Made by a program: the position numbers and the translations under genes. From Elusimicrobiota bacterium (lineage in GTDB: Bacteria > Elusimicrobiota > Elusimicrobia > UBA1565 > UBA9628), in contig JAKFCD010000074.1 of assembly GCA_036676805.1 (NCBI GenBank), positions 40,072-104,071 of the forward strand: a stretch of 64,000 bases of DNA, given 5' to 3'. Below, in pieces: positions 24,832-61,350 of the stretch. The notes beneath the pieces are model-generated. The model was not told the origin of the DNA. It saw only the letters and a program-made list of their open reading frames with translations, and did not search any database. Within the stretch, counting starts at the first letter, position 1; every line of letters starts with the position of its first letter.

Positions 24832-24850
24832 AACTGTTTCCAGAAACAGT
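24832..24850. promoter_or_regulatory. palindromic motif aaCTGTttccagaaACAGt (CTGT-N8-ACAG), copy 1
   Basis: It is located 52 nt upstream of the VIT-VWA start and 27 nt after the anti-sigma stop. It is identical over 18 bp to the reverse complement of 61332..61350. Confidence 0.5.
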
Positions 24851-24877
24851 CGGCGCCGTCCCCGACTCGGAAGGGCG

Positions 24878-26011
24878 TTATTCGGCGAGCTTGACGACGA
24901 CCGGCTTGGAGGAAAGCGCCGCGGGGCGCACGCGGGCGGAGGGATCATCGAAGCCTGAGGCCTTATAAAGGACCACCAGGAGCTTCTTTCGGTTCTGGAT
25001 GCCCGTGATGCCGCAGCCCTCGGGTCCGGCGAGGAAGACCGCCATCTGCTCGGGGAATTTCACCGCCGGCGGCTCGCCCGGCAGCCCGGCGGCGGCCCAG
25101 GCGGCCGCGAGCGCTTCGGCGCTCTTGAGCGTGAGGGCCTTCACGGCCGGAGCCCCGGCCTTGGACCGGGCGGCGCCCCTCACGGCGGCGATGGAGGGGC
25201 GGCCCTCGACGCGGGCCGCCTCGGGGGAGGCTTGCAGCGCCATGAACTCGCGCCCGCCGGAGGGCAGCCTGTCCGAGCCCTCGTCGCGGTCCATGATCTT
25301 GGCGATGCCCATGCGCTTCTTCTCCTCCTCGAAGCCCTTGTAGAGCCGCTCGTTGATGGCGGAGCGCTCCTCCTCGCTGCGGGCGAGCAGGGCGCCTCCG
25401 CCCGCGCCGGGCGCGGGAGCCGCGGCTTCGTCGATCTCGAGCGGCTTGCCCGGAGCGCTGAGGTTCTTGCCGACGGTCGAAGGCGCCGCGGGCTTGTCGT
25501 CGGCCGCGTCCTCCTTCTTCGCCTGGAGCTCTTGGGGCTCCGCCGCGCTTTCGGGGACGCCCTTGCCGCCGGCGCCCATGGCCGACAGCGCGCCGCTGAC
25601 GTCGATCGAGGGGGGCGCGTCCGCGGCGCTCTTGACCGAGACGACCTCGCTGTCCCAGCCCGCGCGCGGCTCCAGGACGTCGGGCTTGCTTAAAGTCCGG
25701 TCCCAGACGACGAGTGCCACCACCGCGGTCGACAGCGCGAAGGCGAGGGGGCGGTAGGAGGGCGGCAGGATGAAGTATTCTCGTTCGGGGGCGACGTCGC
25801 GGGCGCGGCGGGCGTCCAGGCGCGCGGCGAAGCCGGCGGGCAGCGGCTCCTTGGGCAGCCCCTTGACCGCCGAGGAGACGGCGCGCAGGCCCTCGAGCTC
25901 GAGGCGCAGCTCCTCCGAGCGCGAGATCTCCACCTCGACGGCCCGGCGCTCGGCGTCGGGAAGCGCGCCGTCGAGATAGGCGGACAGCTTTTCGCGGATG
26001 TCGTCGTTCAT
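24878..26011 (-). CDS. anti-sigma factor (zf-HC2/RskA-like N-domain, one TM helix, periplasmic C-domain)
   Basis: The start MNDDIREKLSAYLDGALPDAERRAVE overlaps the sigma-gene stop (ATGA). The TM helix is LAFALSTAVVALVVW. Total length is 377 aa. Confidence 0.8.
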   Translation of the reverse strand: MNDDIREKLSAYLDGALPDAERRAVEVEISRSEELRLELEGLRAVSSAVKGLPKEPLPAGFAARLDARRARDVAPEREYFILPPSYRPLAFALSTAVVALVVWDRTLSKPDVLEPRAGWDSEVVSVKSAADAPPSIDVSGALSAMGAGGKGVPESAAEPQELQAKKEDAADDKPAAPSTVGKNLSAPGKPLEIDEAAAPAPGAGGGALLARSEEERSAINERLYKGFEEEKKRMGIAKIMDRDEGSDRLPSGGREFMALQASPEAARVEGRPSIAAVRGAARSKAGAPAVKALTLKSAEALAAAWAAAGLPGEPPAVKFPEQMAVFLAGPEGCGITGIQNRKKLLVVLYKASGFDDPSARVRPAALSSKPVVVKLAE

Positions 26012-26538
26012 GCGGATACCTTGTCGAGCAGGACCTTGAGCTTGGCGCGGGCGCGGAACAGGCGCGACTTGACGGTGCCCTCGGCGAGGCCTAAAACCTC
26101 GCCGATCTCGGCGTAGGAGCGTTCCTCGAGCTCGCGCAGGACGACGATGGCCCGGTCGTCCTGATCGAGCTGAAGCAAGGCTTTCTGCACCACGGCGTTC
26201 GTTCCCTCCTTTTCGAGCTCCGTATCGAGCGGGGCGTCGTTTCCTTTCGGCTCGTACACCGGCTCGTCGTCTTCCTCGTTCCCGAACGCCCCGAACGAGA
26301 TCGTCTTCCAGAATCCCCGGCTCTTCTCGGCCCGCACCCGGTTCTTCCAGGTGTTGACCGTGATGGTGTACACCCACGTCGAAAGCTTGCTGTCGCCCCG
26401 GAACTTGGGCAGGGCGCGCAGGGCCCGGATCAGGGCGTCCTGCGCCAGGTCCTCGGCGTCGGAGCGGTTCCCCGTGAGCCGCAGCGCCACGTTGAACACG
26501 AGCTGACTATGTTCCTCGAGGAACTGAGACTCCGGCAT
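26008..26538 (-). CDS. RNA polymerase ECF-type sigma-70 family sigma factor
   Basis: 176 aa. Region 2 reads LVFNVALRLTGNRSDAEDLAQDALIRA. Region 4 reads LRELEERSYAEIGEVLGLAEGTVKSRLFRARAKL. Confidence 0.9.
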   Translation of the reverse strand: MPESQFLEEHSQLVFNVALRLTGNRSDAEDLAQDALIRALRALPKFRGDSKLSTWVYTITVNTWKNRVRAEKSRGFWKTISFGAFGNEEDDEPVYEPKGNDAPLDTELEKEGTNAVVQKALLQLDQDDRAIVVLRELEERSYAEIGEVLGLAEGTVKSRLFRARAKLKVLLDKVSA

Positions 26539-26545
26539 CGGCTGA

Positions 26546-26573
26546 TAGGACCCGGGAGCGGTCAGAATGTTCC
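26546..26573 (-). promoter_or_regulatory. tentative ECF-type autoregulatory promoter (GGAACA, 16-nt spacer, GTCcta) just upstream of the sigma gene
   Basis: The minus strand reads aaaGGAACAttctgaccgctcccggGTCCTAtcagccgATG. It would give a nearly leaderless transcript. Confidence 0.25.
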
Positions 26574-26574
26574 T

Positions 26575-27240
26575 TTAGAGGGCGTAGGTTTTGACGTCGG
26601 CCGCGACCGTGAACGGCGCTCCCGTCAGGGCCTTCACCGCGTCGACGGTCGTGTCGGGGGAAATCGCGGTCAGGACCAGGCCGCTCTTCGAGAGGTCGAA
26701 CGTCGCCAGCTCGGTCACGATCGTGTTGACCACGGCCTTGCCGGTCAGGGGCAAGGTGCATTTGGGCAGGATTTTCGGCTTGCCGTCCTTCGTCGCGTGC
26801 TCCATCGCGACGATGACGCGCTTGGCTCCCGCGACCATGTCCATGGCCCCGCCCATGCCCTTGACCTTCTTTCCCGGGATCATCCAGTTGGCGAGGTCTC
26901 CCTCGGCGGAGACCTCCATGGCGCCCAGCACGGTCGCGTCGAGATGTCCGCCGCGGACCATCGCGAAGGAGTCGTGCGAGCCGAAGTAGGAGCAGCCGGG
27001 CAGCTCGGTGACGGTCTCCTTGCCGGCGTTGATCAGGTCGGGGTCCTGCTCGCCCTCGTGCGGGTAGGGGCCGTAGCCGAGCATGCCGTTCTCGGTGTGC
27101 AAAGTGACCTCCACTCCGGGCTTGAGGAAGCCGGGGATGAGCGTGGGAATCCCGATTCCCAGGTTGACGTAGGAGCCGTCCTCGAGCAAAGAGGCGGCCT
27201 GGCGGGCGATGACGACGCGGGAGTCCTTGGGCTCAGACAT
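26575..27240 (-). CDS. scoB: 3-oxoacid CoA-transferase subunit B
   Basis: 221 aa. GIGIPTL...ENGMLG...[19 protein letters not shown] is the conserved ScoB/AtoA signature. Confidence 0.9.
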
Positions 27241-27940
27241 GGGCGGCGGCCTTCCTTACGGTGAGTTTCTCGATCGGCTTCTTGTACGCCGGGCCCCGGA
27301 GAACCGCGTCGACGTAGATGCCCGGGGTGTGAATGTGCTCGGGGTGAAGGCCGCCGACGTCGGTGAGGTGCTCGACCTCGGCGACGACGTAGTCCGCGGC
27401 GGTGGCCATGACCTGGTTGAAGTTGCGCGCGGTCTTGCGGTACTCGAGGTTGCCCAGAACGTCGCCCTTGTAGGCCTTGATGAAGGCGAAATCGCCCTTG
27501 AGCGGCTTCTCGAAGACCATCCAGCGCCCGCCGATCTCGCGGGTCTCCTTGCCCTCGGCGACGGGCGTGCCGTAGCCGGTCGGCGTGAAGAAGCCGCCGA
27601 TGCCGGCGCCGCCGGCGCGCAGGCGCTCGGCCAAGGTCCCCTGGGGGTTCCACTCGACCTCGATCTGCTTGGTGAGCGTCATCTCCTCGAAGGCCTTGCA
27701 CTCGCCGCCATAGGACATGATCATCTTGCGCACGCGCCCGGCGCGCAGCAAGGTCCCGATGCCGAAATCGTCGAGGCCGGCGTTGTTGGAGACGAGCGTC
27801 AGGTTCTTGGCGCCGCCGTCGAGCAAGGCGGGGATCAGGTTCTCCGGGAGGCCGCAGACGCCGAAGCCTCCGAGCAGGATCGTCGCGCCGTCCTTGACGC
27901 GCGAAACCGCCTCAGCGGCGGCGGCGATGGTCTTGTTCAT
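27233..27940 (-). CDS. scoA: 3-oxoacid CoA-transferase subunit A
   Basis: 235 aa. [16 protein letters not shown]...SNNAG...MSYGGE is the conserved ScoA/AtoD signature. Confidence 0.9.
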
Positions 27941-28199
27941 CGGAAGGTCCTCCGTGAAGGCGGATGTCGTAGACGGAAAAAAGCCGGCGGCAGGCCTCGT
28001 AGCCGGAGTATACCAAGATGGCGAAGGTGAGGTAGGGCATGGCGTCGACGCCGTAGGAGGCGGGCATGCCCAGCCAGTGCAGCGCCCCGAGGACGAGCCC
28101 GAGCGCGATCGTCGCGAGAACCATCACCGCCGCCTGGCGCCAGGTGAAAGACCACCAGAGGCGCCAGGCGGACGGCCGGGCGAGCGGCGTGCCGCTCAC
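27912..28199 (-). CDS. small two-TM membrane protein (hypothetical)
   Basis: 95 aa with strong GC3 bias and two hydrophobic segments. It fills the otherwise empty metK-scoA gap. Its 3' end overlaps the scoA start by 29 nt in a different frame. Confidence 0.4.
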   Translation of the reverse strand: MSGTPLARPSAWRLWWSFTWRQAAVMVLATIALGLVLGALHWLGMPASYGVDAMPYLTFAILVYSGYEACRRLFSVYDIRLHGGPSDEQDHRRRR

Positions 28200-28208
28200 G
28201 AATGATCC

Positions 28209-29420
<1,212 letters not shown>

Positions 29421-29505
29421 AAGCTTCGAGCCTCCGGGCCGTGCTTTGGGCGGCTTCGCCGCCGACGGCCGTCCCGCGGATTATACAAATTTTACGACGA
29501 GAGAA

Positions 29506-30573
29506 TCAGCGCGCCTCGTCGATGGCGGCGCCGGCGGCGGTCAGCGCTTCGCGGGTCGGGGCGATCGCCCAGACGGCGGGCTTGTCCCGGTCGGTGACGG
29601 CGAACAGCAGGCGTCCGTTCGCGGGGTCCTCTCCGAGAAGCTTCCCTTCGTGGGACGTCCAAGGGGCGCTCCAGCGCCGCCCCCCTTTCTCCAGGACGAG
29701 CAAAACCCGCGGGGCGAGGAAGTCCTTGCCGGTGTCGTTGCGCCGGGAGGGGTCCTTGGCTACGGCGTAGAGGCTGCGGCTCGTCTCGACGGCGGTCTCG
29801 ATCTCGCCGTCGGCCTCGAGCAAGGGGACGCGGCGTCCGATCTGGGGATCCCCCGCCTCGAGGACGAAGGTCCCGGTCTCCGACATCCAGCGCGCCGACA
29901 GCGCGGTCCCGTCCGGGCGAAGCGCCAGCGGCGCGCCGGTCAGCGCCACGCGCCACTCGGCGGTCCGGCGGCCGTCGCGCAGGTCGTAGACCGCCATGCG
30001 CGGCCGCTCGGTCTGCTTCTCCGCGACGAGGAGATAGGGCTCCTCGAGCAGAAGCCCCCGCCACGCCGCCGGACCGTCGAGCAGGCCGCCGGCGCCGGTC
30101 CTCCCGAAGGCCTTCCAGAGGAGGCCCTTTTCGCCGTTCCAGACGGCGATCGGGTCGGGCGACCAGGCGGGGTGCCCGAGCGTCACGACGCCGCGGACCG
30201 GATGCTCCGACAGGATTTTTCCGGCGTCCGCGTCCACGACGAGGAGGACGCGTTCCGAGGGCTCGCTGCGAGAGGCGGCGCCGACCTTGCCCGCCTCGAG
30301 CAGGACGCGCCGGCCGTCGCGCGACAGGGCGAGATGCTCCCCGAGGACGAAGCCTTTGAGGCGCCTGCGCAGCCGCGCGCCCGAGGCGAGGCCGGAGACG
30401 ACGAGGTAGGTCCGGTCGGGAAAGCGCCCGTCGACGAAGGCCAGGCGCCGCGACGAGGGGCTCCAGGAGAACCCCTGCGCGCCGGTGGCGCTCTCGAGCC
30501 GCTCGACGCCGGGCGGCAGGCCGTCCGAGCAGGCGGCCAAGGCCAGCAGCGCGAGCAAAGTCGCGCGCCTCAT
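29506..30573 (-). CDS. lipoprotein with a predicted beta-propeller (TolB/WD40-like) fold
   Basis: 355 aa. It has a lipobox LLALAAC and repeated blade-like segments. I recognise no catalytic motif. Confidence 0.6.
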   Translation of the reverse strand: MRRATLLALLALAACSDGLPPGVERLESATGAQGFSWSPSSRRLAFVDGRFPDRTYLVVSGLASGARLRRRLKGFVLGEHLALSRDGRRVLLEAGKVGAASRSEPSERVLLVVDADAGKILSEHPVRGVVTLGHPAWSPDPIAVWNGEKGLLWKAFGRTGAGGLLDGPAAWRGLLLEEPYLLVAEKQTERPRMAVYDLRDGRRTAEWRVALTGAPLALRPDGTALSARWMSETGTFVLEAGDPQIGRRVPLLEADGEIETAVETSRSLYAVAKDPSRRNDTGKDFLAPRVLLVLEKGGRRWSAPWTSHEGKLLGEDPANGRLLFAVTDRDKPAVWAIAPTREALTAAGAAIDEAR

Positions 30574-30577
30574 GGTT

Positions 30578-31621
30578 CTAGGACCGGATATTGAGGACTG
30601 CCGCCTCGAAGACGGAGATGTTCTCCCGGACGTGGCCGTCGGGGCCGATGATGCAGTTGGTCAGGCGCACGCCCTCTCCGACGGTGACGTTCTCGAAGAG
30701 GATGCATTTTTCCAGGCGCGCGTCCTTGCCGATCCGCGCGCGGTCGCCGATGACGGTATGGGGGCCGACCACGGCGCCCGCGGCCACGCGCGAGCCCTTG
30801 CCGATGAGCACGGGCGCCTCGAGCCGGGCCTTGGGGTCGATCATCGCGCCGGCCTCCACCCAGACGCCCTTGCGGATCTCGGCGCCGGGAATGTTGATCT
30901 GGGACTTGCGGTCGAGGCAGTCGATCTGCGCGCGGCGGTACTCGGCGAGGTTGCCGACGTCGCACCAGTAGGCGTCGGTCTCGTAGGCGTAGATCGGCTT
31001 CTTCAGCTTGAGCAGCTTGGGCCAAAGCTCGTGGCCGAAATCGTAGGGCTTGCCCTTGGGCAGCAACTTGAGAATCTCGGGCTCGAAGAGATAGATGCCG
31101 GTGTTGACCTTGTTGGAGAATACGTCGCCCCAGGAGGGCTTCTCGAGGAAGCCCTTGATCTTCTGGCCGCCGTCGGTCAAGGTGACGCCGTACTCGAAGC
31201 GGCCGTCGACGCGCTTGGTCGCCATCGTCGCGACCGAGCCGCGCTTGCGGTGGAACTGCCACATCGCGGTGAGGTCGATGTCGGAGAGCCCGTCGCCCGA
31301 CATGACGAAGAACGGGCCGTCCTTGAAGAAGCTCTCGACCTTCTTGATCGAGCCCGCCGTGCCCATCAGCTTGGGCTCATGCGAGTAATGGATCTTCAGG
31401 CTCCAGCGCGAGCCGTCGCCGCAGTAGCCGCGCACCTGCTCGGGATGCATGTGCAGGTTGACCATGACCTCCTCGACGCCGTGCTTGAGCAGGTTGTCGA
31501 GGACGTGATGGATCACGGGCCGGTTGACGACGGGCACCATGGGCTTGGGCGTCTCGTAGGTCAGGGGGCGCAGGCGCGTTCCCGCGCCGGCCGCCAACAG
31601 CATCGCTTTTTTCGGGAACAT
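30578..31621 (-). CDS. NDP-sugar pyrophosphorylase (mannose-1-phosphate guanylyltransferase-like) with a C-terminal left-handed beta-helix
   Basis: 347 aa. MLLAAGAGTRLRPLTYETPKPMVPV is the nucleotidyltransferase G-loop. C-terminal hexapeptide repeats follow. Confidence 0.85.
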   Translation of the reverse strand: MFPKKAMLLAAGAGTRLRPLTYETPKPMVPVVNRPVIHHVLDNLLKHGVEEVMVNLHMHPEQVRGYCGDGSRWSLKIHYSHEPKLMGTAGSIKKVESFFKDGPFFVMSGDGLSDIDLTAMWQFHRKRGSVATMATKRVDGRFEYGVTLTDGGQKIKGFLEKPSWGDVFSNKVNTGIYLFEPEILKLLPKGKPYDFGHELWPKLLKLKKPIYAYETDAYWCDVGNLAEYRRAQIDCLDRKSQINIPGAEIRKGVWVEAGAMIDPKARLEAPVLIGKGSRVAAGAVVGPHTVIGDRARIGKDARLEKCILFENVTVGEGVRLTNCIIGPDGHVRENISVFEAAVLNIRS

Positions 31622-31631
31622 GATTCGACCT

Positions 31632-33053: not shown

Positions 33054-33054
33054 G

Positions 33055-36692: not shown

Positions 36693-36696
36693 CGCG

Positions 36697-39158: not shown

Positions 39159-39184
39159 GAGCGAAAATTATATAAAATTCGGCC

Positions 39185-48964: not shown

Positions 48965-50035
48965 ATGGAAATCGGCATCGTCGGTCTGCCCAACGTCGGA
49001 AAGTCCACCATCTTCAACGCATTGACCTCCGGTAATGCGGCGGCTTCCAATTACCCGTTCACGACCATCGAGCCGAACGTGGGCGTCGTCGGCGTTCCCG
49101 ATCCGAGGCTGCAGCGCCTGACCGAACTGGCCAAGCCCAAAAAAACGATCCCCGCCTCCTGCCGTTTCGTCGATATCGCCGGTTTGGTGAAAGGCGCCGC
49201 CTCCGGCGAAGGTCTCGGCAACAAATTCCTGGCCAACATCCGCGAAGTCGACGCCATTCTCCATATGGTCCGCCTGTTCCAGGACCCGGACGTCATTCAT
49301 ACCATGGGCGGCGTGGACTTCAAGCGGGATATAGACGTCATCGAGACCGAGCTGATGCTCGCCGATCTCGAGAGCATCTCCAAGCAGTACGACAAGGTCT
49401 CCGGCAAGGCCAAGTCGGGCGACAAGGCCGCCAAGGAGGCGATGGTCGTGCTCGACGCCCTCAAGGGCGGCCTCGAGGCGGGCAAGCCCGCTCGCGCCCT
49501 CGGCCTCGACGCGAAGTCGCTTGGCGACTTCGCCCTCTTGACCGCCAAGCCCGTCCTCTACGTCGGCAACACCGACGAGAATCCCGATCCCGCGACGCTC
49601 GCGGAGTTCAAGTCCTTCACCGCGGCCCGCGGCTCCGAGTCCGTCGTGATCTGCGGCAAGCTCGAGAGCGAGATCGCCCAGCTCTCCGGCGAGGACCGCG
49701 AGATGTTCATGAGGGAGCTCGGCATGAAGCAGAGCGGCCTCGAGACCGTCATCGTCGGCGCCTACAAGACCCTCGGCCTCTGCTCCTACTTCACCGTCGG
49801 CGTCGAGGAGGTCCGCGCCTGGACCATCCGCGTCGGAGACAAGGCCCCGCGCGCCGCGGGCGTCATCCACACCGACTTCGAGAAAGGCTTCATCAAGGCC
49901 GACATTTACGGCTACTCCGACATCGACAAGCTCGGCTCCGAGGCCGCGCTGCGCGAGAAGGGCCTCATCCGTTCCGAAGGCAAGGAGTACACGGTCAAAG
50001 ATGGCGACATCTGCCACTTCAAGTTCGCCAACTGA
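48965..50035 (+). CDS. ychF: ribosome-binding ATPase YchF
   Basis: 356 aa. It has [18 protein letters not shown] (G1), the NxxE motif and the C-terminal TGS domain. Confidence 0.95.
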
Positions 50036-51203
50036 AGCCTCGTTGCTTTGCCGGCATTTCGGCACGTGTGGCGGCTGCTCCCTCCAAGACAAGCCTTACG
50101 ACGTTCAGCTCGTCCTGAAGAAAGAAAAAGTCCTCGCAGCCTTGGCGGGCTTCGAGGGCCTTCCCGCTCCATCCCTCATCGGCGCCCCCGACATCTGGAA
50201 CTACCGCAACAAGATGGAGTTCAGCTTCGGCGACGTATACCCTCCCGTTGAGGGCAAATGGCTCAAGCTGGGCATGAAGCCCAAGGGCCGCTGGTACGAG
50301 ATCCTCGACCTCCAGGAATGCCGCCTCCCCAGCCCCGAGGCGGCCAAGCTCCTCGCCTCCGTGCGCGCCTGGGCCGAACGCGAGAAGGTCCCTCCGTACA
50401 ACTCCCATAAGAAGGTGGGCGTGCTGCGCCATCTGGTCATCCGCGAGGCCAAGAACCGCCCCGAGCGGATGGTCCTGCTGGTCACGACGGACGGGAATAT
50501 CCCCAAGGCTTCCTTTATAGAAGCCGTGCAGGCGGTCTATCCCGCGACGACCGTCCTCCTCGGCTCCAACGCCAAGGAGTCCGACACCGCGATCTCGGAC
50601 TCGATGGAAACCTTGATGGGGCAGGGCTTCATCACGGAAACGCTGTACTTCCCCGACGGCGCCGTCGACTACCGCATCTCTCCGCACTCCTTCTTCCAGA
50701 CCAACACCAAGGGCACCGAGGCGCTGTACGGCCTGCTGCGTTCCTGGACGCGCGAGCTTGCGGACACGAGCGCGGTTCTCGACCTGTACTGCGGCGGCGG
50801 CGGCATCGCGCTGTCGCTGGCGGGGGCGGCGCGCAAGGTCGTCGGCGTCGAGCTCAACGCCTCGGCCGTGGCCGACGCGAAGGCCAACGCCGAGCGCAAC
50901 GGATTCAAGAACTGCGAGTTCTACTGCGCCCCCGTCGAACTGCTCCTGCCGTCCTTGCTCGACATGCGGCCGCAGGCCGTCATCGTCGACCCGCCCCGCG
51001 CGGGCCTGCACGCGAAGGCCTCCGCGACCTTGCTTGAGATGGCGCCGCCGCTGATCTTCTACGTCTCCTGCAATCCCGAGTCGCTGGCCCGCGACCTCAA
51101 AGTCCTCGAGCCGAAGTACGCCGTCGACCGCCTCGTCGTGGTCGACCTCTTCCCCCACACGGACCACGTCGAGACCGTCGTCCGCCTCGTGCCCCGCGGG
51201 TAA
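50001..51203 (+). CDS. RumA/RlmD-family 23S rRNA (uracil-C5)-methyltransferase with an N-terminal 4Fe-4S cluster
   Basis: It has CRHFGTCGGC (Cys cluster), FFQTN, LDLYCGGGGIAL (motif I) and DPPRAG. ATG 50001 overlaps ychF by 35 nt. TTG at 50043 is an alternative start. Confidence 0.85.
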   Translation: MATSATSSSPTEASLLCRHFGTCGGCSLQDKPYDVQLVLKKEKVLAALAGFEGLPAPSLIGAPDIWNYRNKMEFSFGDVYPPVEGKWLKLGMKPKGRWYEILDLQECRLPSPEAAKLLASVRAWAEREKVPPYNSHKKVGVLRHLVIREAKNRPERMVLLVTTDGNIPKASFIEAVQAVYPATTVLLGSNAKESDTAISDSMETLMGQGFITETLYFPDGAVDYRISPHSFFQTNTKGTEALYGLLRSWTRELADTSAVLDLYCGGGGIALSLAGAARKVVGVELNASAVADAKANAERNGFKNCEFYCAPVELLLPSLLDMRPQAVIVDPPRAGLHAKASATLLEMAPPLIFYVSCNPESLARDLKVLEPKYAVDRLVVVDLFPHTDHVETVVRLVPRG

Positions 51204-51252
51204 TCTTTCTTATCCCCTTGCCGACGGCGCCCGTTCCCGCTATCCTTGGGCC

Positions 51253-51846
51253 ATGCCTCTTCGATTTATTCTCGGCTTTCTGCTCAGCGCCTTTCTCGCC
51301 AACGCGGCTCCTGCCAAAGAATCCGCGAACGATAAATCTGCGACATCGAAATCGACGGTGAAGAGCAAGGAAAAAAACAAACCTGCCAAACAAAAGGTTT
51401 CTCGGACCTGGATGACGGTCGTCGATTACGTTCTTGCCAATGGGATGGGAAGAACTCTGAAGGCACCCCTCACCAAAAATCTGAAATTCGAATCAGATGC
51501 GGTTAGCACAAAGGCGCTTCGCTACAAGCTCGGCGATTCGCCTGACAAGAAGAACCATGCGTTCTATGTGGTCTTCACGGGAAATGAGGATGGAAAACTT
51601 GTTCCCAAAGAATTTGTTGTTGGCAGCGCCTTCGTCGTCAAAAATGACGATGCCAAGTCGGTTGAAGATTTTTTCCTGCGTGTCGATTTGAATGGAAACA
51701 TTGTTGCAGCGGTCAGCAGCAAAGGCCCGTCGGGGAAAGTGATCGAGACCATTCATCCGCCGGATTCGCAAGAAGCCCTCACGGCTCTTAAAGCCGAGAA
51801 ACTGCTACATCTGAAAACCATGGATCTCGAGAAGCTGAGCAAATGA
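51253..51846 (+). CDS. Lys-rich secreted protein encoded in a low-GC island (hypothetical)
   Basis: 197 aa with a signal peptide (MPLRFILGFLLSAFLANAAPA). The gene is about 48% GC against a ~70% background. The codon pattern is still coding-like. Its stop overlaps the next start (ATGA). Confidence 0.6.
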   Translation: MPLRFILGFLLSAFLANAAPAKESANDKSATSKSTVKSKEKNKPAKQKVSRTWMTVVDYVLANGMGRTLKAPLTKNLKFESDAVSTKALRYKLGDSPDKKNHAFYVVFTGNEDGKLVPKEFVVGSAFVVKNDDAKSVEDFFLRVDLNGNIVAAVSSKGPSGKVIETIHPPDSQEALTALKAEKLLHLKTMDLEKLSK

Positions 51847-53033
51847 AACCGCTCATTATTGCCGCGCTTTTATTCGTGAGTGCAGGTCGCGCGCAGGATG
51901 ACGGATGGGCCGAGGATTTGCGGAATGATCAGCAAGAAGTCGAACAGCTTGCCCGTGACGCAAAGGTCCCCGGCATCACTCCCGAAACCGCGTCGGAGCT
52001 CGAGCGACAGCGGTTGGAATCTGTAAAGAGAATCGAAACGATCGCCGATAATCGCCCCGACAATCCCGCCGCCCAGCTCGCCGTCGGCAAAAGCCTCGCC
52101 TCCGTCGAGGAAGCCCCGCGCGCCATCCCCTACGCCGAGCGCGGCCTGGCGCTCGCGGAGAGCTCCGGCGATCCGAAGCTGGTCCGGGAGGCCTTGCTGA
52201 CCGGCTCCGAGGTCTACGCCAAAGCGGGGCGCTACGATCTGGCGCGCGAGCGGGCGGAGCGCGTGCTGAAGACGAACCCTCGCGACAAGGACGCGCTCGC
52301 TCTGTACATGCAGGTCAAAGGCCGTGGGGCTGCCTCGGCGGCTTCGCCTACCGGCGGCAAGACGGCAGGCGCTTACGGTGCGGCCGGCTCGGCCTCTGCC
52401 GGCGCCCCCGCGGCGGCCGCCCCCGGCGCGGCGATGACGAGCCCCGCCTCGCTCGAGGCGCGCAAGCAGATCGCGCTCGGCTGGAGCCGCATCAAGCTCG
52501 ACCCGGCGGCGGCGCTCAAGAGCTTCGAGGCCGCGATCACCGCGGATCCGATGAACGCCGCGGTGCGCGTGCAGCGCTCGAAGGCGCGCCTGGCGGCGGG
52601 CGATTTCCCCGGGGCGCTCGGAGACTCCGACGACGCGATCAGGATGGACCCGAGGCTAGGCGAGGCCTACGCCGCCCGCGCCGAGGCCAAGCGCGCCCTG
52701 GGCCGCGCGGAGGCCGAGCTCGTCACCGACTACGAGGCGGCGGCGAACCTGGACGGACGCTTCGCCGAGGCGTACAAGGCGGTCGTGACGCGTCTTTCGG
52801 CTTCAGCCGAAGGGGGCGCTAGCGCAAGCGGCCCCGGCGACGGCTCGACGGCGGCCGGGCTGCCCCCGCCCGGCGGGCCGCTCGGGCTCTTGGCGCGGTC
52901 GCCCAAGAAGTGGGGCCTGATCGCCCTGTTGTGCGTGCTCGCCGCGCTCGCGGGCGGCCTGTTCGCCCCGCTTCTGCTCAAGAGGCGGCGCTCCCCGGAC
53001 GCGGGCGCCCCTACGCCGACGCCGCGACCCTAG
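51843..53033 (+). CDS. TPR-repeat protein with a signal peptide and a C-terminal membrane anchor
   Basis: 396 aa. TPR-like helices include AYAARAEAKRALGRAEAEL. The C-terminus reads WGLIALLCVLAALAGGLFAPLLL. The first ~230 nt are low GC; the rest is ~75% GC. Confidence 0.7.
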   Translation: MKPLIIAALLFVSAGRAQDDGWAEDLRNDQQEVEQLARDAKVPGITPETASELERQRLESVKRIETIADNRPDNPAAQLAVGKSLASVEEAPRAIPYAERGLALAESSGDPKLVREALLTGSEVYAKAGRYDLARERAERVLKTNPRDKDALALYMQVKGRGAASAASPTGGKTAGAYGAAGSASAGAPAAAAPGAAMTSPASLEARKQIALGWSRIKLDPAAALKSFEAAITADPMNAAVRVQRSKARLAAGDFPGALGDSDDAIRMDPRLGEAYAARAEAKRALGRAEAELVTDYEAAANLDGRFAEAYKAVVTRLSASAEGGASASGPGDGSTAAGLPPPGGPLGLLARSPKKWGLIALLCVLAALAGGLFAPLLLKRRRSPDAGAPTPTPRP

Positions 53034-53071
53034 GGTTATCTCCGACCTAGCTACCGCCCCCGGCGATACGG

Positions 53072-53077
53072 TATAAT
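53072..53077 (+). promoter_or_regulatory. -10 box TATAAT upstream of tRNA-Arg
   Basis: ggTATAATcc lies 20 nt upstream of the mature tRNA 5' end. The -35 is weak. Confidence 0.4.
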
Positions 53078-53097
53078 CCCGCGTCGGGCCGTCGATT

Positions 53098-53170
53098 GCG
53101 CTCGTAACACAAAGGATAGTGTCCCGCCCTGCGAAGGCGGGTATCCAGGTTCGATTCCTGGCGAGCGCAA
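53098..53170 (+). tRNA. tRNA-Arg, anticodon read as GCG (CCA not encoded)
   Basis: Hand-folded cloverleaf. Acceptor GCGCTCG/CGAGCGC, 7 of 7 pairs. D-stem ACAC/GTGT with G18G19 and A20. Anticodon stem CCGCC/GGCGG with loop CTGCGAA (U33, GCG, A37). T-arm CCAGG-TTCGATT-CCTGG. Discriminator A73. Confidence 0.85.
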
Positions 53171-53191
53171 TGGACGGCCCGCCTTTTTTTA
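53160..53191 (+). terminator. rho-independent terminator after the tRNA (hairpin plus T7 run)
   Basis: ggcgagc-gcaatggacg-gcccgcc is followed by ttttttt. It uses part of the acceptor 3' strand. A second hairpin cgcgag...ctcgcg follows at 53194-53218 for the convergent minus-strand gene. Confidence 0.5.
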
Positions 53192-55218: not shown

Positions 55219-55358
55219 GCAACCCGGACAGTGTATATATTTCTAAAACTTGCCCGGACGGGCGCTCTTGCGCTCGCGGCGCAACGGGGCTACAGTCTGC
55301 AGGGAACTTAGCGGCCGCGACGTTGTCCAAATCGCATCCTATGCCCGGTGAGAGCGCC

Positions 55359-58300
55359 ATGAAACGATTACTGCTCGTTCTGTCCATTCTCGCGGCCGCG
55401 GCGCCGCCCGCGCGCGCCGACCTCTCGAAGGCGGACGCCCTCTTCGAGAAGCGCCTCTACCAGGAGGCCCTCAAGGAGTACGAGGCGGCTCTCGGGTCCG
55501 CGTCGGGCGAGGAGCGCCTCAAGGCCTTGTACCGGGCGGCCGAATCGGAAGCCCTGTTGTTCCGCTACGCGGAGGCCGCCCGTCGGGTGTTCCCGGAGAA
55601 GCTGCCGCGCGATCCGGCCTGGCGGGGCCGTTTCTTGATCCTGCGCACCGAGCTCGCCCGCGAGTTCCTGAAGCAGTACGGCCGGGCCGCGCCCCAAGAC
55701 TCCGAGGAAGGCGCCGAGGACCTCACGAAGCGCACGCGCCCGGAATGGGAAGCCGATTTGCGGGACGACTATCAGAAGCTGTGGGCCGTGCGCCGGGACC
55801 TCGCCGGTCTTCCGATCGCCGGGGAAAGCTATTTCGTGGACTTGAAGGACGCCGACGCGTCGCTCACGCCGACGCTCTGGGACCTGGCGGTCCTGCGCTG
55901 GACCGGCTATCTTCTCGGCGAGGCCACGTCGGAGCCGGGGAAGAACCCGCCCGGGCTCTCTTTTCTCGTCGAGAGCTACGCGGGGCGCTACGCCCCGGAC
56001 GCGCCGCTCGCCGTCCAGGCCGGGGCCGTTCTCGAGGAGGCCGCCGGCATGGGCGGCGATGGACGCGAAGCGGTCCGCGAGAGCTGGCGGCTCCAGCGCC
56101 TGCTGATCCCGTTCCGCCATTCGGACAACGTCGCCGGCTTCCCGGATCACCCGGCCGCGCGCAAGGCGGCCGTCGCCCTGCTGCGCGGCTGGATGGGCTC
56201 CCTTCGGACCCCCGACGCGAAGGCCGAGGCCGGCCACGAGGCGGCCCTGCTGCTCCACGCCGGCGGCAGCCCCTCCGAGGCCGTCGCTCTTTGCAAGACC
56301 GTGGAGGGAAGCTGGCCCCAGACCCGCTCGGCCAAGGCCGCCGCGAAATTGCGCGCCCAGATCGAGCTGCCGATGCTGTCGGTCACGGGGCGCTTCTCGC
56401 CGCCTCCCGGCAAGGATATCCTGCGCCTGTCCACGCGCAACCTCGAGCGCGTTCACGTCTTCCTGCACCTCGTCGAGCCCGAGGAGCTCGCCGAGCTCTC
56501 CCGCCGCCGCGGCGACGATTGGTCGGCCCTGCGCAACCCCGATAACGAGCTGGTCAAATCCTTCCTCGCGGAGCGCTCTCCCGTCGCGCGCTTCTCCGTC
56601 GACACCAAGGCGCCGTCCCCTCATCAGCAGGTCGAGACGCCGGCGGTCCCGCCGGCGCTGACGGCCGGCATCTATCTCGCGATCGCGAGCAACGACGTCC
56701 GGCCCAAGCCCGGCTCGTCCTTGATCTCCGCGGTGTTCGTCAACGTGACCGAGCTGTTCCTGCTCGGCTCGGCCGGGCCCAAGGGTCCCGAGCGCGATTT
56801 CATCTTCGACCCCGCCGGGCCCCGGGAGCGAACCGTCGCCGGCTTCCATCTGTACGCGCTCGACGCCCGCACCGGCGCCCCCGCGCGCGGCGCCCGCATC
56901 GACGCGTTCAAGCGCACGAACTGGGGGCAGATCGAGCGGCACTCGCTGACGACCGACGACGCCGGCGTCGCCGAGGTCCCCGCGACCGTGAGCCTGATCT
57001 ACGGCGACAGCCGGAGCTTCTCGCTCGACCCGCTCGCCCGCTCGGGCGCCAGCCGCGCGTACTGGCAGAATCCGTCCCATTTCAACGCCGGCGTCCCGGC
57101 CCCCGTCGAGCTGCACCTGGAGACCGACCGCCCCATCTACCGCCCCGGCCAGACCGTGCGGGTCAAGACCACGGTCCTGCGACGCCTGCCGCGCGGCTAT
57201 AAGGTCTACGACGGGACCTCCAAGCTGACGGTGCGGCTCAACGACGCCAACGGCCAGGAGCTGTGCAAGGCCGAGCCGAAGCTCAACGCCATGGGCTCCG
57301 CCTCGGTCTCGTGCTCGATACCGACCGGGCGTCTTCTCGGCCGGTACTCGGCGCAGGCGACGCTCGGCGACTTCGAGCGGAACTTCTCCGGCCGCCTGGC
57401 CTTCGCCGTCGAGGAGTACAAGCGTCCCGAGTTCGAGGTGAAGGTCGACGAGAGCACCGGCATCTGGCGCTACGGCCGGGCGGTGTCGGTGGGGGGCGAG
57501 GCGAAGTACTATTTCGGCGGGGTCGTCCCGGACGCGCCGGTGACCTACAAAGTGACGCGCTCCGTGCACATCCCGTGGTTCTGCTGGTGGTGGCGGTGGC
57601 AGTGGGGAAATCGGGGCGCCTCCGAGGTCGCCTCGGGCCGGGTCAAGACGGGGGACGACGGCAAGTTCTCCTTCCCGTTCACGCCTCAGCCGTATGACCC
57701 CTCCGCGAAGAACGCCCCGCCCTCGCGCTTCACCGTCTCGGTCGAATCGCGCGACCCTGGGGGCAGGACCATCACGGCCGAGCGCTCCTTCACCGCCGGG
57801 GACAAGTCCGTCCTCCTCGCCATCGAGCCGCCGGCCGGGTTCGCCCGCGCCGGCAAGCCTCACGCGGTGGCGCTCAAGCTCTTGAACCTCAACGAGAAGA
57901 CGCGGGACGGAACCGGCTCCTACACGCTGTACCGCCTGACCCAGGACCCTCCCATGGACGGCGGCGAGGCGCAGTGGGGAGGCCGCTTCGCGGAGAACAC
58001 GCCGCTCGAGCAGCTCTACAAGGATGTGCCCAACGGCCCCGAGGCCGCCGCGGGCAAGCTGCGCTTCTCCAAGGACAGGCCGGTCTTCGCGGGGCTGCCG
58101 GGCCTCGCCGAGGGCGCCTACCGCCTCGTCGTGCGCGCCGACGACCCCGCCGGCGGGACCGTCGAGCAGTCGGTGATCGTGCTGTCGGCGGGGAACGGGA
58201 AGTCCCTGCGCCTGCCCGCGGTCTCGCTCGCCGAGCAGGGGACCGCGCTGCGCGGCGAGACGGCGCGCCTGCTCCTGGGCTCCGCCGGGCTCTCGAAGCA

Positions 58301-61300
58301 GATGATCGTCGAGATCTGGGGCGGTTCGTCCATGCTCGAGCGCCGCGTGCTCGGCGGCGGCGGCGTGCGGGTCCTCGAGGTCCCGGTGACCGACGACCAC
58401 AAGGGCGGCTTCACCGTACGCTGGTTCGGCGCCCGGGACTTCAAGATTCGTTCAGGTCAGGCCCGCGTGGAGGTGCCGTGGAAGGACCGCGAGCTGTTCG
58501 TGAAGCTGCGCCACGACGCGGTGATGAAGCCGGGCCAGAACGTGCGCTGGTCGCTGTCCGTGTCCGACCGCGACGGCAAGCCCGCGTCGGGCGAGGCGGC
58601 GGTGCGGGTGTATGACCGCTCGCTCGAGTACTACGCCGGCGCCGCCGGGGCTTGGACCGCGGGCCTCTACCCCGCGCGTCGGAACTATTCGCCCGCGCAG
58701 GGCTCCTTGTTCATCCCCTACGGCCGGCAGCTCCCCGTCGACGAGGGCTGGGTCAGGAGGATGATGGACCTGTATCATCAGGCGATCCGCGAGCCCGTGG
58801 CGCCGGGCCTCAGAATCAACCGCAGCCGCGTCTACGGCGGGCGGTTCTCCGGCATGAAGATGTACGCCCCCGGCTCCGTCGCCGCCGTCAGGGGCGCGAT
58901 GTCGGAAGAATCCTACGATATGGCCGGCGGCGGTCTGGCGGCGGCCTCTCCCGCGGCCGAGGCTTCTATGATGCGGGGGAAGAGCAGTCGCAATGAGATG
59001 GAGCAGGATAAGAAGGAGTCCGCCCCGAAGCCGTCGGAGCCGCCCGTCGCGGCGCGCAAGGACTTCTCCGAGACGGCCTACTTCGAGCCGCACCTGAGCG
59101 TGAAGAACGGCAAGGCCTTCTTCGCCTTCAAGGCGCCGGAGCGCCTGACGAGCTGGAAGACGAGCGCCGTCGTGCTCACGCGCGACGTCAAGCGCGGCGG
59201 CGTCTCGGCCGAATCGGTGACGCGCAAGGACCTGATGGTGCGCGTCGAGATGCCCCGCTTCTACCGCGAGGGCGACGAGGGCCTGCTGCAGGCCGTCGTG
59301 CACAACGAGACGGGCGCGCCCATGACGGGCGAAGTGACCTTGCTCGTCACCGAGGACGGCAAGGACGCGGCGTCCAAGCTCGGTCTCTCGGGGACCGTCG
59401 TCGGGTTCACGGCGAAGCCTCACGGCATCGCGCCGCTGTCGTGGACCGTGAAGGCCCCGCGCGGCATGACCACGTTCTCGGTCCGCGCCGTGGCCCGCGC
59501 CGGGGCGTTGGCCGACGCCGAGGAGCGCGAGCTCCCGATTCTTCCTTCACGCGAGAGGCTCATCGAGACGGCCTTCGCCGTGCTCGACGGCGAGACGCGC
59601 AAGGTCCTGGCCCTGCCGGCCTGGACCGAGCCCGATTCCACGCGCGAGCACGAGTCGGTCCACGTGCAGGTGGATCCTCAGCTGGCTTTGATCGTCCTAA
59701 ACAGCCTGCCGTCGCTGGTCCATTATCCCTACGAGTGCACCGAGCAGCTGCTCAACCGCTACGTCCCGCTCGCCATCGTCAACGCCTTCTACCGGAAGTA
59801 TCCGGCGCTGGCCGCGGCGGCCAAGAAGATCCCCAAGCGCAGGACGGTCACGCCCGCCTGGGACCGCTCCGATCCGCGGCGCCTGACGCGGCTGATGGAG
59901 TCGCCGTGGGAGGAAAAGTCGAAGGGCCGGGCCGCCCATTGGCCGATCATCGACATGTTCGACCCCAGGACGGTGCAGGCCGAGCTCGCCGACTCGCTGG
60001 GCAAGCTCAAGAGCTATCAGCTCGGCGACGGGAGCTTCCCCTGGTTCCCCGGCGGACGCCCGAGTCCGTACATGACCTTGCTCGTCCTCGCGGGCTTCGC
60101 CGAGGCCCAACGCTACGGCGTGACGCCTCCGGCGGAGGTGGTCTCGAAGGCGCTGGCTTACACGAACAACGAGATTCCCCGGCACCTCAAGCCCGAGGAA
60201 GGCGAGCTCGCGCTGATCCTGTACGCGGCCTACACCGTCACCTCGTTCCCTCGGACGATGCCCGGCGCCGAGCAGGGCTGGCGCTTCGCCAAGGTCTGGG
60301 CGGACTACGCCGACAAGCACACCGACGCGCTGACGCCCTTCGGCCGCGGCTACGCGGCCTACGTGTACTGGCGCTTGGGCGAGAAGGCGAAGGCGGACCT
60401 TTACCTCGCGCGCGCCCTGGACGGCATACGCACCGATCCGATCGCCGGCACCTACTGGGCGCCGGAGAAGATCTCCTGGCTGTGGTACAACGACACGGTC
60501 GAGAAGCACGCCTTCTTCCTGCGTACCTTGCTGACGCTCAGGCCCAAGGATCCGCGCATCCCCGGGATGGTGCAGTGGCTGCTCTTCAACCGCAAGGGCA
60601 ACGAGTGGAAGTCCACCAAGGCCTCGGCCGCGGCGATCTACTCCTTGCTCGACGTGCTCAAGTCGCGCGGCGCGCTCGACAAGGGCGACGGCTACAAGAT
60701 CAAGTGGGGCGGCGAGACCGAAACCGCCCAGGTCGAGCCGCTCGACTGGCTCTCACAGCCCCTGCGCTGGAGCCGCTCGGGGGCCGAGGTCAAGGAGACC
60801 CACGGCAAGGCAGTCATCGACAAGACCGGGCCCGGCTTCGGCTTCGCCTCCCTGACCTGGATCTACAGCACCGACAAGCCGCCCAAGGCCTCGGGGCCGG
60901 GGATGATGGAGTTGGAGCGGACCTACTTCCGCCGCGACAAGGCGGGCGACGGTTATAAGCTCTTTCCGCTGAAGTCCGGAGACGCCGTCGCCGTCGGCGA
61001 CCAGATCGAGGTGCGCCTGACGGTCAAGACGCGCTCGCAGTTCGAGTACGTGCACTTGAAGGACCCGCGCGGCGCCGGGTTCGAGGGCGAGGAGCTGCGC
61101 TCGGGCTGGAAGTGGGACCGGCTCTCGCGCTACGAGGAGCCGCGCGACTCTCTGACGAACTTCTTCATGGACTGGACGCCCCACGGGGAGTACAAGCTCT
61201 CCTACCGCGTCCGCCCCACGACGCCGGGGACCTACCGCATCGGCGCGGCCGTGCTCCAGTCTATGTACGCGCCGGAGATGACGGCGCACTCGGACGGCAT

Positions 61301-61322
61301 GATCCTGAAGGTCCGCCCTTAG
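55359..61322 (+). CDS. alpha-2-macroglobulin family protein with an intact thioester motif
   Basis: The start MKRLLLVLSILAAAAPPARADLSK is a signal peptide. The protein is 1987 aa, with multiple MG-like domains and the thioester HYPYECTEQLLNRY. The 72-aa upstream extension in the table is rejected. Confidence 0.9.
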   Translation: MKRLLLVLSILAAAAPPARADLSKADALFEKRLYQEALKEYEAALGSASGEERLKALYRAAESEALLFRYAEAARRVFPEKLPRDPAWRGRFLILRTELAREFLKQYGRAAPQDSEEGAEDLTKRTRPEWEADLRDDYQKLWAVRRDLAGLPIAGESYFVDLKDADASLTPTLWDLAVLRWTGYLLGEATSEPGKNPPGLSFLVESYAGRYAPDAPLAVQAGAVLEEAAGMGGDGREAVRESWRLQRLLIPFRHSDNVAGFPDHPAARKAAVALLRGWMGSLRTPDAKAEAGHEAALLLHAGGSPSEAVALCKTVEGSWPQTRSAKAAAKLRAQIELPMLSVTGRFSPPPGKDILRLSTRNLERVHVFLHLVEPEELAELSRRRGDDWSALRNPDNELVKSFLAERSPVARFSVDTKAPSPHQQVETPAVPPALTAGIYLAIASNDVRPKPGSSLISAVFVNVTELFLLGSAGPKGPERDFIFDPAGPRERTVAGFHLYALDARTGAPARGARIDAFKRTNWGQIERHSLTTDDAGVAEVPATVSLIYGDSRSFSLDPLARSGASRAYWQNPSHFNAGVPAPVELHLETDRPIYRPGQTVRVKTTVLRRLPRGYKVYDGTSKLTVRLNDANGQELCKAEPKLNAMGSASVSCSIPTGRLLGRYSAQATLGDFERNFSGRLAFAVEEYKRPEFEVKVDESTGIWRYGRAVSVGGEAKYYFGGVVPDAPVTYKVTRSVHIPWFCWWWRWQWGNRGASEVASGRVKTGDDGKFSFPFTPQPYDPSAKNAPPSRFTVSVESRDPGGRTITAERSFTAGDKSVLLAIEPPAGFARAGKPHAVALKLLNLNEKTRDGTGSYTLYRLTQDPPMDGGEAQWGGRFAENTPLEQLYKDVPNGPEAAAGKLRFSKDRPVFAGLPGLAEGAYRLVVRADDPAGGTVEQSVIVLSAGNGKSLRLPAVSLAEQGTALRGETARLLLGSAGLSKQMIVEIWGGSSMLERRVLGGGGVRVLEVPVTDDHKGGFTVRWFGARDFKIRSGQARVEVPWKDRELFVKLRHDAVMKPGQNVRWSLSVSDRDGKPASGEAAVRVYDRSLEYYAGAAGAWTAGLYPARRNYSPAQGSLFIPYGRQLPVDEGWVRRMMDLYHQAIREPVAPGLRINRSRVYGGRFSGMKMYAPGSVAAVRGAMSEESYDMAGGGLAAASPAAEASMMRGKSSRNEMEQDKKESAPKPSEPPVAARKDFSETAYFEPHLSVKNGKAFFAFKAPERLTSWKTSAVVLTRDVKRGGVSAESVTRKDLMVRVEMPRFYREGDEGLLQAVVHNETGAPMTGEVTLLVTEDGKDAASKLGLSGTVVGFTAKPHGIAPLSWTVKAPRGMTTFSVRAVARAGALADAEERELPILPSRERLIETAFAVLDGETRKVLALPAWTEPDSTREHESVHVQVDPQLALIVLNSLPSLVHYPYECTEQLLNRYVPLAIVNAFYRKYPALAAAAKKIPKRRTVTPAWDRSDPRRLTRLMESPWEEKSKGRAAHWPIIDMFDPRTVQAELADSLGKLKSYQLGDGSFPWFPGGRPSPYMTLLVLAGFAEAQRYGVTPPAEVVSKALAYTNNEIPRHLKPEEGELALILYAAYTVTSFPRTMPGAEQGWRFAKVWADYADKHTDALTPFGRGYAAYVYWRLGEKAKADLYLARALDGIRTDPIAGTYWAPEKISWLWYNDTVEKHAFFLRTLLTLRPKDPRIPGMVQWLLFNRKGNEWKSTKASAAAIYSLLDVLKSRGALDKGDGYKIKWGGETETAQVEPLDWLSQPLRWSRSGAEVKETHGKAVIDKTGPGFGFASLTWIYSTDKPPKASGPGMMELERTYFRRDKAGDGYKLFPLKSGDAVAVGDQIEVRLTVKTRSQFEYVHLKDPRGAGFEGEELRSGWKWDRLSRYEEPRDSLTNFFMDWTPHGEYKLSYRVRPTTPGTYRIGAAVLQSMYAPEMTAHSDGMILKVRP

Positions 61323-61331
61323 ACCCAGACG

Positions 61332-61350
61332 GCTGTTTCTGGAAACAGTT
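61332..61350. promoter_or_regulatory. palindromic motif gCTGTttctggaaACAGtt (CTGT-N8-ACAG), copy 2
   Basis: It starts 10 nt after the A2M stop. It is the reverse complement of copy 1 over 18 bp (AACTGTTTCCAGAAACAG). Confidence 0.5.

Follow-up and report, generated by a model that had tools for sequence, protein, structure and literature searches.

What is an AT-rich palindrome doing twice in the GC-rich DNA of an uncultured Elusimicrobiota bacterium? The stretch analysed here (the window) comprises 64,000 nucleotides of contig JAKFCD010000074.1, and its GC content of ~69% makes such a palindrome stand out. The exact 18-mer AACTGTTTCCAGAAACAG lies at 24832-24849 on the plus strand and at 61333-61350 on the minus strand. 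The original prediction, made from the letters alone, held that this match in opposite orientation is far beyond chance. Our analysis bears this out, as 100 shuffles gave no match, and no other independent site with up to three mismatches occurs in the window. The fit of the core to the CTGT-N8-ACAG consensus of the LexA SOS box is also real; the window holds two such sites, both of them the palindrome copies, where 0.27 would be expected. The extent needed correction, however: the 18-mer match stands, but the full unit is a 20-mer, which we call P1 (Table 1). We consider it likely that P1 belongs to a dispersed family resembling the repetitive extragenic palindromes (REPs), and is neither a LexA box nor the operator of a regulon.

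In Elusimicrobial loci, the 18-mer is the core of P1, a perfect 20-bp palindrome with the consensus AACTGTTTCCGGAAACAGTT. When one genome per species was scanned with the 18-mer, 33 loci emerged. High-GC Elusimicrobiota metagenome-assembled genomes (MAGs) account for ten, and two of these MAGs carry four P1 contigs each; the other 23, in unrelated taxa, are consistent with chance, as is the one match among viral contigs. A metagenome scan with the query AACTGTTTCYRGAAACAGT gave at least 120 loci. Among the matches listed, ~95 are high-GC contigs, at least 28 contigs being from sample Ga0163144 and at least 23 from Ga0255338. Homologues of the window proteins carry the source names Elusimicrobia or Elusimicrobiota, the window has a match in a metagenome assembly, and the hosts form a high-GC clade of Elusimicrobiota with roughly 65-72% GC. 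Secondary sites in flanks, together with loci fetched without the motif, place the density at about one element per 30-100 kb. Copies number in the tens per genome, adjoin unrelated genes, lie nearly always outside genes and are biased toward 3' ends. No paper with the P1 motif was found by string searches, nor any on REPs in Elusimicrobia.

The copies are strikingly uniform. Of 115 sites within four mismatches of the P1 consensus, 46 match it perfectly, 48 differ at one position and four mismatches never occur; where there is one mismatch, the change is mostly at the outermost base or at the CpG. The centre reads CCGG in 89 of the metagenome matches listed, CCAG in 7 and CTGG in 6, so that the perfect CCGG palindrome is the dominant form, and the CCAG/CTGG centres of the window copies are thus single transitions at its CpG. 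Flanks are unrelated from locus to locus, orthologous loci excepted. [quoted passage not shown]

The superfamily to which P1 belongs, as its most abundant member, is lineage-specific and has the form ACT-N4-CCGG-N4'-AGT, in which the foot ACT...AGT and the CCGG centre are fixed and the four base pairs between them vary but remain complementary. High-GC loci totalling 810 kb contain 136 matches to ACT-N4-C[CT][AG]G-N4-AGT, and each of them has a complementary N4 (129 perfect, 7 with one mismatch, 0 with more). Besides the GTTT of P1, the N4 types include CGCA (called P2; 13 copies), CTTC, GATC, GTTC, GCGT, AGTT and ATTC, giving at least eight types. The other 63 possible outer triplets yield at most one hairpin each around a CCGG centre. 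Furthermore, ACT, though AT-rich in GC-rich genomes, is the most frequent foot when all hairpins with a 7-bp stem and a 4-nt loop are counted, and the leading combinations of foot and loop are ACT with CCGG (23) and ACT with TTGA (5). A fixed foot and centre with a covarying mid-stem are expected of a hairpin recognised by a protein, not of a double-stranded operator, in which uncontacted bases need not stay palindromic.

The sister element P2 (ACTCGCGCCGGTGCGAGT) is also found in the window, where it forms the apical 18 nt (61359-61376, with one G.T mismatch) of the GC hairpin beside P1 copy 2. Thus, the window holds three superfamily members in 64 kb. The notion of a dispersed, composite REP-like element, which was part of the original prediction, is borne out by this and extended, since one superfamily includes both the palindrome and the GC hairpin at copy 2. 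P2 sits 0-20 nt from P1 in many loci; overall, a sister element is found within that distance, at variable spacing, in ~15% of copies, and most copies are single.

Other hairpins were seen around these elements. A second loop type on the ACT foot is represented by ACTGTCG-TTGA-CGACAGT and its relatives (locus L019 at 624 and 1135; L028 at 2893; L083 at 10953; L058 at 370), and in L019 and L028 the TTGA-loop element is followed by a DnaA-box-like sequence, TGTGGATAA or AGTGGATAA. The imperfect palindrome GGTGCCCCCATATGGGCGCC recurs beside P1, often across an A-rich spacer of 10-15 nt, and GTGCCGTATACGGCAC recurs there as well (L098/L126, L121/L137, L142, L038 and L009; L039 and L083). Several hairpin families together make the intergenic space of these genomes a mosaic.

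The search for further copies yielded ~100 copies of P1 in related genomes, and 98 of 102 lie outside genes. Their neighbours fall into 54 start-side and 71 stop-side clusters, which include rsgA, mreB, gmd, dcd, purF, hemC, alr, transporters and peptidases. When 107 neighbour representatives were scanned against Pfam, 137 families were found, none in more than three members and none enriched. The gaps that hold P1 are tandem in 45 cases, convergent in 22 and divergent in 12, with four further copies inside genes; in other words, 28% of the 79 classifiable copies are in convergent gaps. Measured against the intergenic length available, P1 is depleted in divergent gaps (binomial p=0.002) and tends to be enriched in convergent ones; the chi-square p over all gap types is 0.007. 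The divergent depletion is contrary to the pattern expected of a promoter operator. The distance to the stop side is at most 10 nt in 32 of 89 cases, and 16 of these have a stop codon that touches or overlaps the element, as in T-G-ACT.... A preference for TA target sites, as an explanation of this closeness to stop codons and -10 boxes, was rejected, as a TA/TA flank was seen in only 3 of 97 copies.

These data bear directly on the leading idea of the original prediction, that P1 is a LexA SOS box. In P1, the outer tetranucleotides and the distance between them agree with the box of Gamma- and Betaproteobacteria, and P1 stands ~90 nt upstream of uvrA in locus L030 and twice upstream of uvrA in L155. 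However, these two loci make up a single cluster among the 54 downstream clusters, the rest belonging to genes such as rsgA, mreB, gmd, dcd, purF, hemC and those for transporters, and in L135 the 55 nt of sequence available upstream of a recA homologue contain no site. SOS genes are not enriched. The N8 spacer is as invariant as the arms, all 20 positions being nearly invariant, and CTGT-N8-ACAG with any other spacer occurs in related loci as only one further repeat family. No LexA homologue was found in the Elusimicrobial DNA fetched, a weak point since only part of any genome was covered. The diverse non-SOS neighbours, the varied types of gap and the in-frame intragenic copies do not support LexA; a LexA regulon was rejected because of the content of the neighbouring genes and the context, and a LexA box as such appears very improbable. 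An operator reused at terminators, proposed in the same prediction, finds no support either, given the invariant N8, the diverse neighbours, the convergent and intragenic copies and the absence of copy 1 from relatives.

Comparison of orthologous loci tells how the elements behave over time. For both window copies, such loci were found through the proteins and not through the motif. The orthologue of copy 2 was reached through an MFS homologue (P0007, 79% identity) in GCA_016182905.1, which has the same convergent MFS-A2M arrangement. Its 59-nt gap reads TAG-gccgggCTCGCACCGGCGCGAGtccggcc-tg-AACTGTTTCCGGAAACAGTC-...TTA, so that P2 and P1 are both kept. The pair is kept in this form in L157, and the orthologous P1 copy AACTGTTTCCGGAAACAGTC is found in L157 and L158. 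The L157 hairpin shows compensatory changes in its outer stem, and its P1 has the centre CCGG, which is the ancestral state. Two other relatives have different neighbours after MFS and no element.

In L159 (JAHFCE010000024, 11200-11300), a tRNA-like sequence on the minus strand and a tRNA-U5-methyltransferase gene, not A2M, follow MFS; synteny breaks exactly at the gap that holds P2 and P1 in the window. In L156 (CP096137.1, 11187-11640), a small HNH-endonuclease gene directly follows MFS, at the place taken by P2 and P1 in the window, with inverted repeats of ~37 nt (caatcgttaaagggtgtcaggcctcacg...) around it, and this unit looks like a separate mini mobile element.

Copy 1 has a different history. 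None of the six orthologous VIT/VWA loci (92-66% identity) carries P1, and its absence at this position in L160, L166, L161, L162 and L163 includes relatives at 88-89% identity. In L160, GGAACC directly follows the anti-sigma stop codon, whereas the window has 46 nt more, namely the 26 unique nt and P1. The closest relative, L165, reads ...TAAACAGCC-GGAAC, in which the last 5-6 nt of P1 remain and 40 nt are missing. The comparison thus marks copy 1 as a lineage-specific gain that was largely deleted in the nearest sampled relative, not as an ancestral promoter operator. The motif GGAACCTT-N16-GTC, which we take from the general extracytoplasmic function (ECF) consensus to be an ECF-type promoter, lies ~35 nt before the ribosome-binding site (RBS) upstream of the VIT/VWA orthologue in L160 (8190-8230), L161, L162, L163, L165 and L166. 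In most orthologues, the VIT/VWA gene adjoins an ECF sigma/zf-HC2 anti-sigma pair. Since the promoter is conserved and the gene adjoins this pair, the VIT/VWA gene is probably a target of that sigma factor.

Similar turnover is seen elsewhere. Members of the P1 family are gained, lost and duplicated, and both window copies belong to it. Upstream of uvrA, the single P1 of L030 corresponds to a P1-37 nt-P1 arrangement in L155, the outer flanks of which match L030. Three orthologous loci share a P1 fused to a -10 box, with a distance from stop codon to P1 of 0 nt, of 15 nt, or of 36 nt with P2. P1 has no stop codon in any frame, and inside genes it is read as QLFPETV in linkers between acyl carrier protein (ACP) domains of polyketide synthase (PKS)-like multi-ACP proteins; the orthologous ACP1-ACP2 linker in L083 lacks P1. 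Synteny is kept on both sides of many P1 copies, and P1 as a synteny breakpoint or cassette boundary was rejected, as both flanks are orthologous in related loci.

Two further arrangements involve P1. In L086 (9582-10700), the rsgA-associated P1 is separated from a CTTC-type sister element by two extra genes that are absent from L110, L129 and L132, an anecdotal case; they encode a 204-aa protein, presumably of the dihydrofolate-reductase family from our own reading of its sequence, and a 155-aa membrane protein. Direct repeats of ~70 nt with internal inverted repeats (ctgccgaccgcggcc...gccgcggcggcag) flank a short P1-containing segment in L026 (831-900 and 1078-1150), L019, L094, L096, L122 and L124. 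This segment recurs in several metagenomes; nearby are an IS110-like transposase in L026 and, in L019, a toxin-antitoxin pair.

Could an abundant dimeric, sequence-specific DNA-binding protein (a global regulator, say, or a nucleoid-associated or ParB/Noc/KorB-like protein) instead use P1 as its operator or loading site, with ~50-100 near-perfect sites to bind? A perfect 20-bp palindrome with almost no degenerate copies, kept at orthologous sites, would suit such a protein. P1 also frequently overlaps the -35/-10 spacer of leaderless promoters. In ~20 loci, its last T is the first base of a TAnnnT box, 6-7 nt ahead of the start codon of a gene that appears to be leaderless; the clearest fusion is that of rsgA in 7-8 related genomes (AACAGTTAGAATCTCGACGTG), where the -10 box TAGAAT begins with the last T of P1. 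Moreover, parS (TGTTTCACGTGAAACA), a 16-bp palindrome (TGTTNCACGTGAAACA) that clusters near the origin, shares its hexamers, TGTTTC/GAAACA, with P1, and the near-perfect copies without a degenerate tail are another feature in common with parS/Noc sites. In P1, however, the half-sites are 2 bp closer (14 bp vs 16 bp in all, with a separation of 2 bp vs 4 bp), the copies are spread over dozens of contigs, and there are sister families with other mid-stems. These sister families share only foot and centre and yet keep N4 complementary, which a double-stranded reading does not need. The 28% of copies in convergent gaps, the depletion of divergent gaps and the in-frame copies inside PKS genes speak against it as well, as does copy 1, which was inserted and then deleted among near relatives with an unchanged ECF promoter. 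We therefore regard a site for such a protein as unlikely.

Many genes of the clade seem to be leaderless; they lack a Shine-Dalgarno sequence and have a TAnnnT box 6-8 nt ahead of the start. Loci of this type are L041, L086, L110, L113, L129, L132, L134 (rsgA) and ~12 others.

The closeness of copies to stop codons and their 3'-end bias would also suit modules at RNA 3' ends, i.e., terminators, stabilising hairpins or processing sites selected by the host and not mobile. P2 cores sit atop long GC stems, which are stable, and the stem at copy 2, at -21.7 kcal/mol in isolation, shows the compensatory changes in L157 described above. A palindrome would further yield the same hairpin in both convergent transcripts. 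P1 alone, however, is not an intrinsic terminator, because its hairpin reaches only -5.4 kcal/mol and no T-run follows, and even the stem at copy 2 is followed by UAG without a U-run. A structural role would not keep 18-20 nt invariant across unrelated loci, 12 copies are in divergent gaps and four in coding linkers, and in 8 of 10 tandem composites P1 lies downstream of a strong P2 hairpin that is itself the likely terminator. A host-selected 3'-end module is, in our judgement, quite unlikely as the explanation of the family.

An uptake signal, comparable to the DNA uptake sequence (DUS) of Neisseria or the uptake signal sequence (USS) of Haemophilus, would likewise be lineage-specific, highly conserved, short and often located behind genes. 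DUS and USS also sit as inverted repeats behind genes, and their density is ~1 per kb. Against that density, the ~1 per 30-100 kb of P1 is very low, and several sister families differ in their mid-stems; such a role for P1 is hardly credible.

A dispersed repeat family thus remains the reading we prefer, and the nearest known systems are the REP/REPIN-RAYT systems of Proteobacteria, mobilised by RAYT (Y1 HUH) transposases whose single-copy gene is flanked by the repeats. A REP forms an imperfect hairpin whose foot carries a conserved 5' GTAG tetranucleotide (PMC3479197), and the replicating unit is a doublet of inverted REPs, the REPIN (PMC3337134). The P1/P2 family resembles them in being made of ~20-nt palindromes outside genes, with several families per genome and a conserved motif at the hairpin foot (PMC3337134, PMC3479197, PMC1525189). 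Mosaics (here P1 beside P2), the 3'-end bias, vertical persistence with gain and loss and use as insertion sequence (IS) targets are also shared. In contrast, the stems of the P1/P2 family are perfect, the foot is ACT/AGT without GTAG and the centre CCGG is conserved. P1 copies are mostly single, without REPIN doublets of fixed spacing; some are in frame inside genes; and the host phylum is Elusimicrobiota.

Rickettsia palindromic elements (RPEs) are selfish palindromes of ~100-150 bp found in frame within genes. P1 shares with them its in-frame position in PKS-like inter-domain linkers, with an orthologous linker lacking it, but it is only 20 bp long compared with ~100-150 bp, and only four of ~100 copies are intragenic. 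With MITEs, P1 has in common that it is non-coding, dispersed inverted-repeat DNA with presence/absence polymorphism among relatives; its total length of 18-22 bp is far below that of known MITEs. No direct repeat in the flanks points to a target-site duplication at P1; the flanks extend the palindrome as C-A...T-G. Nor was a parent IS with P1-type ends found, the sole IS beside P1 being an IS4-family element inserted in P2.

Several observations weigh against a REP-like repeat family. The hallmarks of REPs, namely the imperfect stem, the 5' GTAG and the REPIN doublets, were not found. No Y1/HUH (RAYT-like) protein was among the top families of the 107 neighbour proteins, and two crude tests, tblastn with an IS200 TnpA and a regular expression for the HUH motif in 1.3 Mb of fetched DNA, gave no match for a RAYT. 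P1 is nearly invariant and has no tail of decayed copies, which is less readily reconciled with neutral selfish DNA than with sequence-specific protein recognition or with selection acting on every copy. The P1 copies that end at a -10 box in ~20 loci look operator-like, and the P1 hairpin is weak. Besides, copy numbers were estimated from metagenomes that possibly mix related strains, and most of the orthologous conservation comes from loci found with the motif and hence carries an ascertainment bias.

The one IS beside P1 deserves description. In L009, a decayed element of 1028 bp (444-1471), IS4-family by source names and with the Pfam domain DDE_Tnp_1 in a truncated DDE open reading frame (472-1158), lies inside the centre of a P2 that abuts P1. 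It has 18-nt inverted repeats, CAATGCCGATCAGTTAAG/CTTAATCGATCGGCATTG, presumably similar to those of E. coli IS4. Just outside its ends stand GACTC-GCGCCGGTGC and GCGCCGCTGC-GAGTC, a duplication of ~10 bp of the P2 centre; removal of the IS and one copy of the 10-bp repeat restores the P2 palindrome. Target duplications of the IS4 family are ~10-13 bp long. The 18-nt inverted repeats of IS4 type and the 10-bp duplicate of the P2 centre led us to drop the idea that P2 represents fused IS termini. That insertion sequences target REPs is established (PMC1525189).

The surroundings of the two window copies are listed in Table 1, in a gene map obtained with a codon-usage gene caller trained on the data and with Pfam. 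The map agrees with the earlier one, in which copy 1 was placed near the VIT-VWA and anti-sigma genes and copy 2 in the convergent gap between A2M and MFS. Copy 1 lies in a 97-nt gap from the anti-sigma stop to the VIT/VWA ATG, 51-52 nt from the latter, and directly abuts the -35 element of the VIT/VWA promoter; PF08487 and PF00092 were found in the VIT/VWA homologues. The spacer between copy 1 and the anti-sigma gene has no similar sequence in any other locus. Copy 2 is in the 59-nt convergent gap, the whole of which folds at z = -3.5 to -3.7 on either strand. A GC stem had been claimed beside each copy. That at copy 2 is the strong hairpin discussed above; at copy 1, there is no separate strong hairpin, and the supposed weak stem is no recognisable member of the P1/P2 family. 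There, P1 and two flanking base pairs form a 10-bp stem of -11 kcal/mol on the transcribed strand.

Table 1. Features around the two P1 copies in the window, and P1 sites read in frame in related loci (a dot denotes a feature without strand)
Feature	Position	Strand	Remarks
P1 copy 1, AACTGTTTCCAGAAACAGTC	24832-24851	.	20-bp palindromic repeat unit
P1 copy 1, 18-nt core, ACTGTTTCCAGAAACAGT	24833-24850		
P1 copy 2, GGCTGTTTCTGGAAACAGTT	61331-61350	.	Arm tip mutated from AA to GG; centre CTGG
Unique 26-nt spacer, anti-sigma stop codon to P1 copy 1	24852-24877	-	
ECF-sigma-type promoter of VIT/VWA gene	24807-24831	-	-35 GGAACC at 24826-24831, 16-nt spacer, -10 GTC at 24807-24809
Secreted VIT/VWA protein gene, downstream of copy 1	22426-24780	-	ATG at 24778-24780; RBS GGAGGAG at 24786-24792
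zf-HC2 anti-sigma factor gene	24878-26011	-	Stop codon 28 nt from P1 copy 1
ECF sigma gene	26008-26538	-	
Alpha-2-macroglobulin (A2M) gene	55341-61322	+	Stop at 61320-61322, 8-9 nt before P1 copy 2
MFS transporter gene, convergent with A2M	61382-62569	-	Stop at 61382-61384
Terminator-like GC hairpin beside copy 2, GGACGGACTCGCGCCGGTGCGAGTTCGTCC	61353-61382	.	Last base overlaps MFS stop codon
In-frame P1 sites	L152, 3039 and 11475; L083, 8440; L039, 94		

Rfam gave nothing at either palindrome site and only a tRNA in the window. A sigma-54 promoter was considered and rejected by inspection, as TGG..TTGC is mis-spaced by 2 nt. At 50001-52000, the GC content dips locally to 0.60, compared with ~0.69 elsewhere, and a tRNA gene follows at 53098-53169; this region could be an integration hotspot or an island.

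How might such elements spread? P1 and P2 would be REP-like or nano-MITE-like elements, copied either as single-stranded hairpins or as a minimal inverted repeat. The foot and centre, being invariant, would be what an enzyme acting in trans recognises, so that the mid-stem could covary freely. This mode of spread is tentative. Effects of the elements at the window sites would probably be secondary: copy 2 and P2 may act as a bidirectional 3'-end hairpin region between A2M and MFS, and copy 1, as a recent insertion, could at most modulate read-through or access to the promoter. A bolder and rather doubtful possibility is that the ACT-N4-CCGG-N4'-AGT elements, at 18-20 bp, are the smallest self-propagating DNA units yet seen in bacteria, copied by an Elusimicrobiota enzyme that recognises hairpins and is not a RAYT, with some copies co-opted as gene punctuation. 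Such co-opted copies might supply the stop codon, the spacer and the -10 junction that link a gene to the leaderless one after it. The elements could, besides, insert in frame into proteins.

Our analysis removes a false lead, as a perfect CTGT-N8-ACAG in an uncultured phylum is easily annotated as an SOS box. In its place stands what is likely a REP-like system outside Proteobacteria, with an unusually small and regular architecture of fixed foot, CCGG centre and covarying mid-stem, and with clean cases of gain, loss, duplication, in-frame insertion and IS targeting. The repeats may also serve as practical markers for the binning and strain-typing of these MAGs. If the enzyme that spreads them is found, it would extend our knowledge of how very short hairpin repeats multiply and persist.

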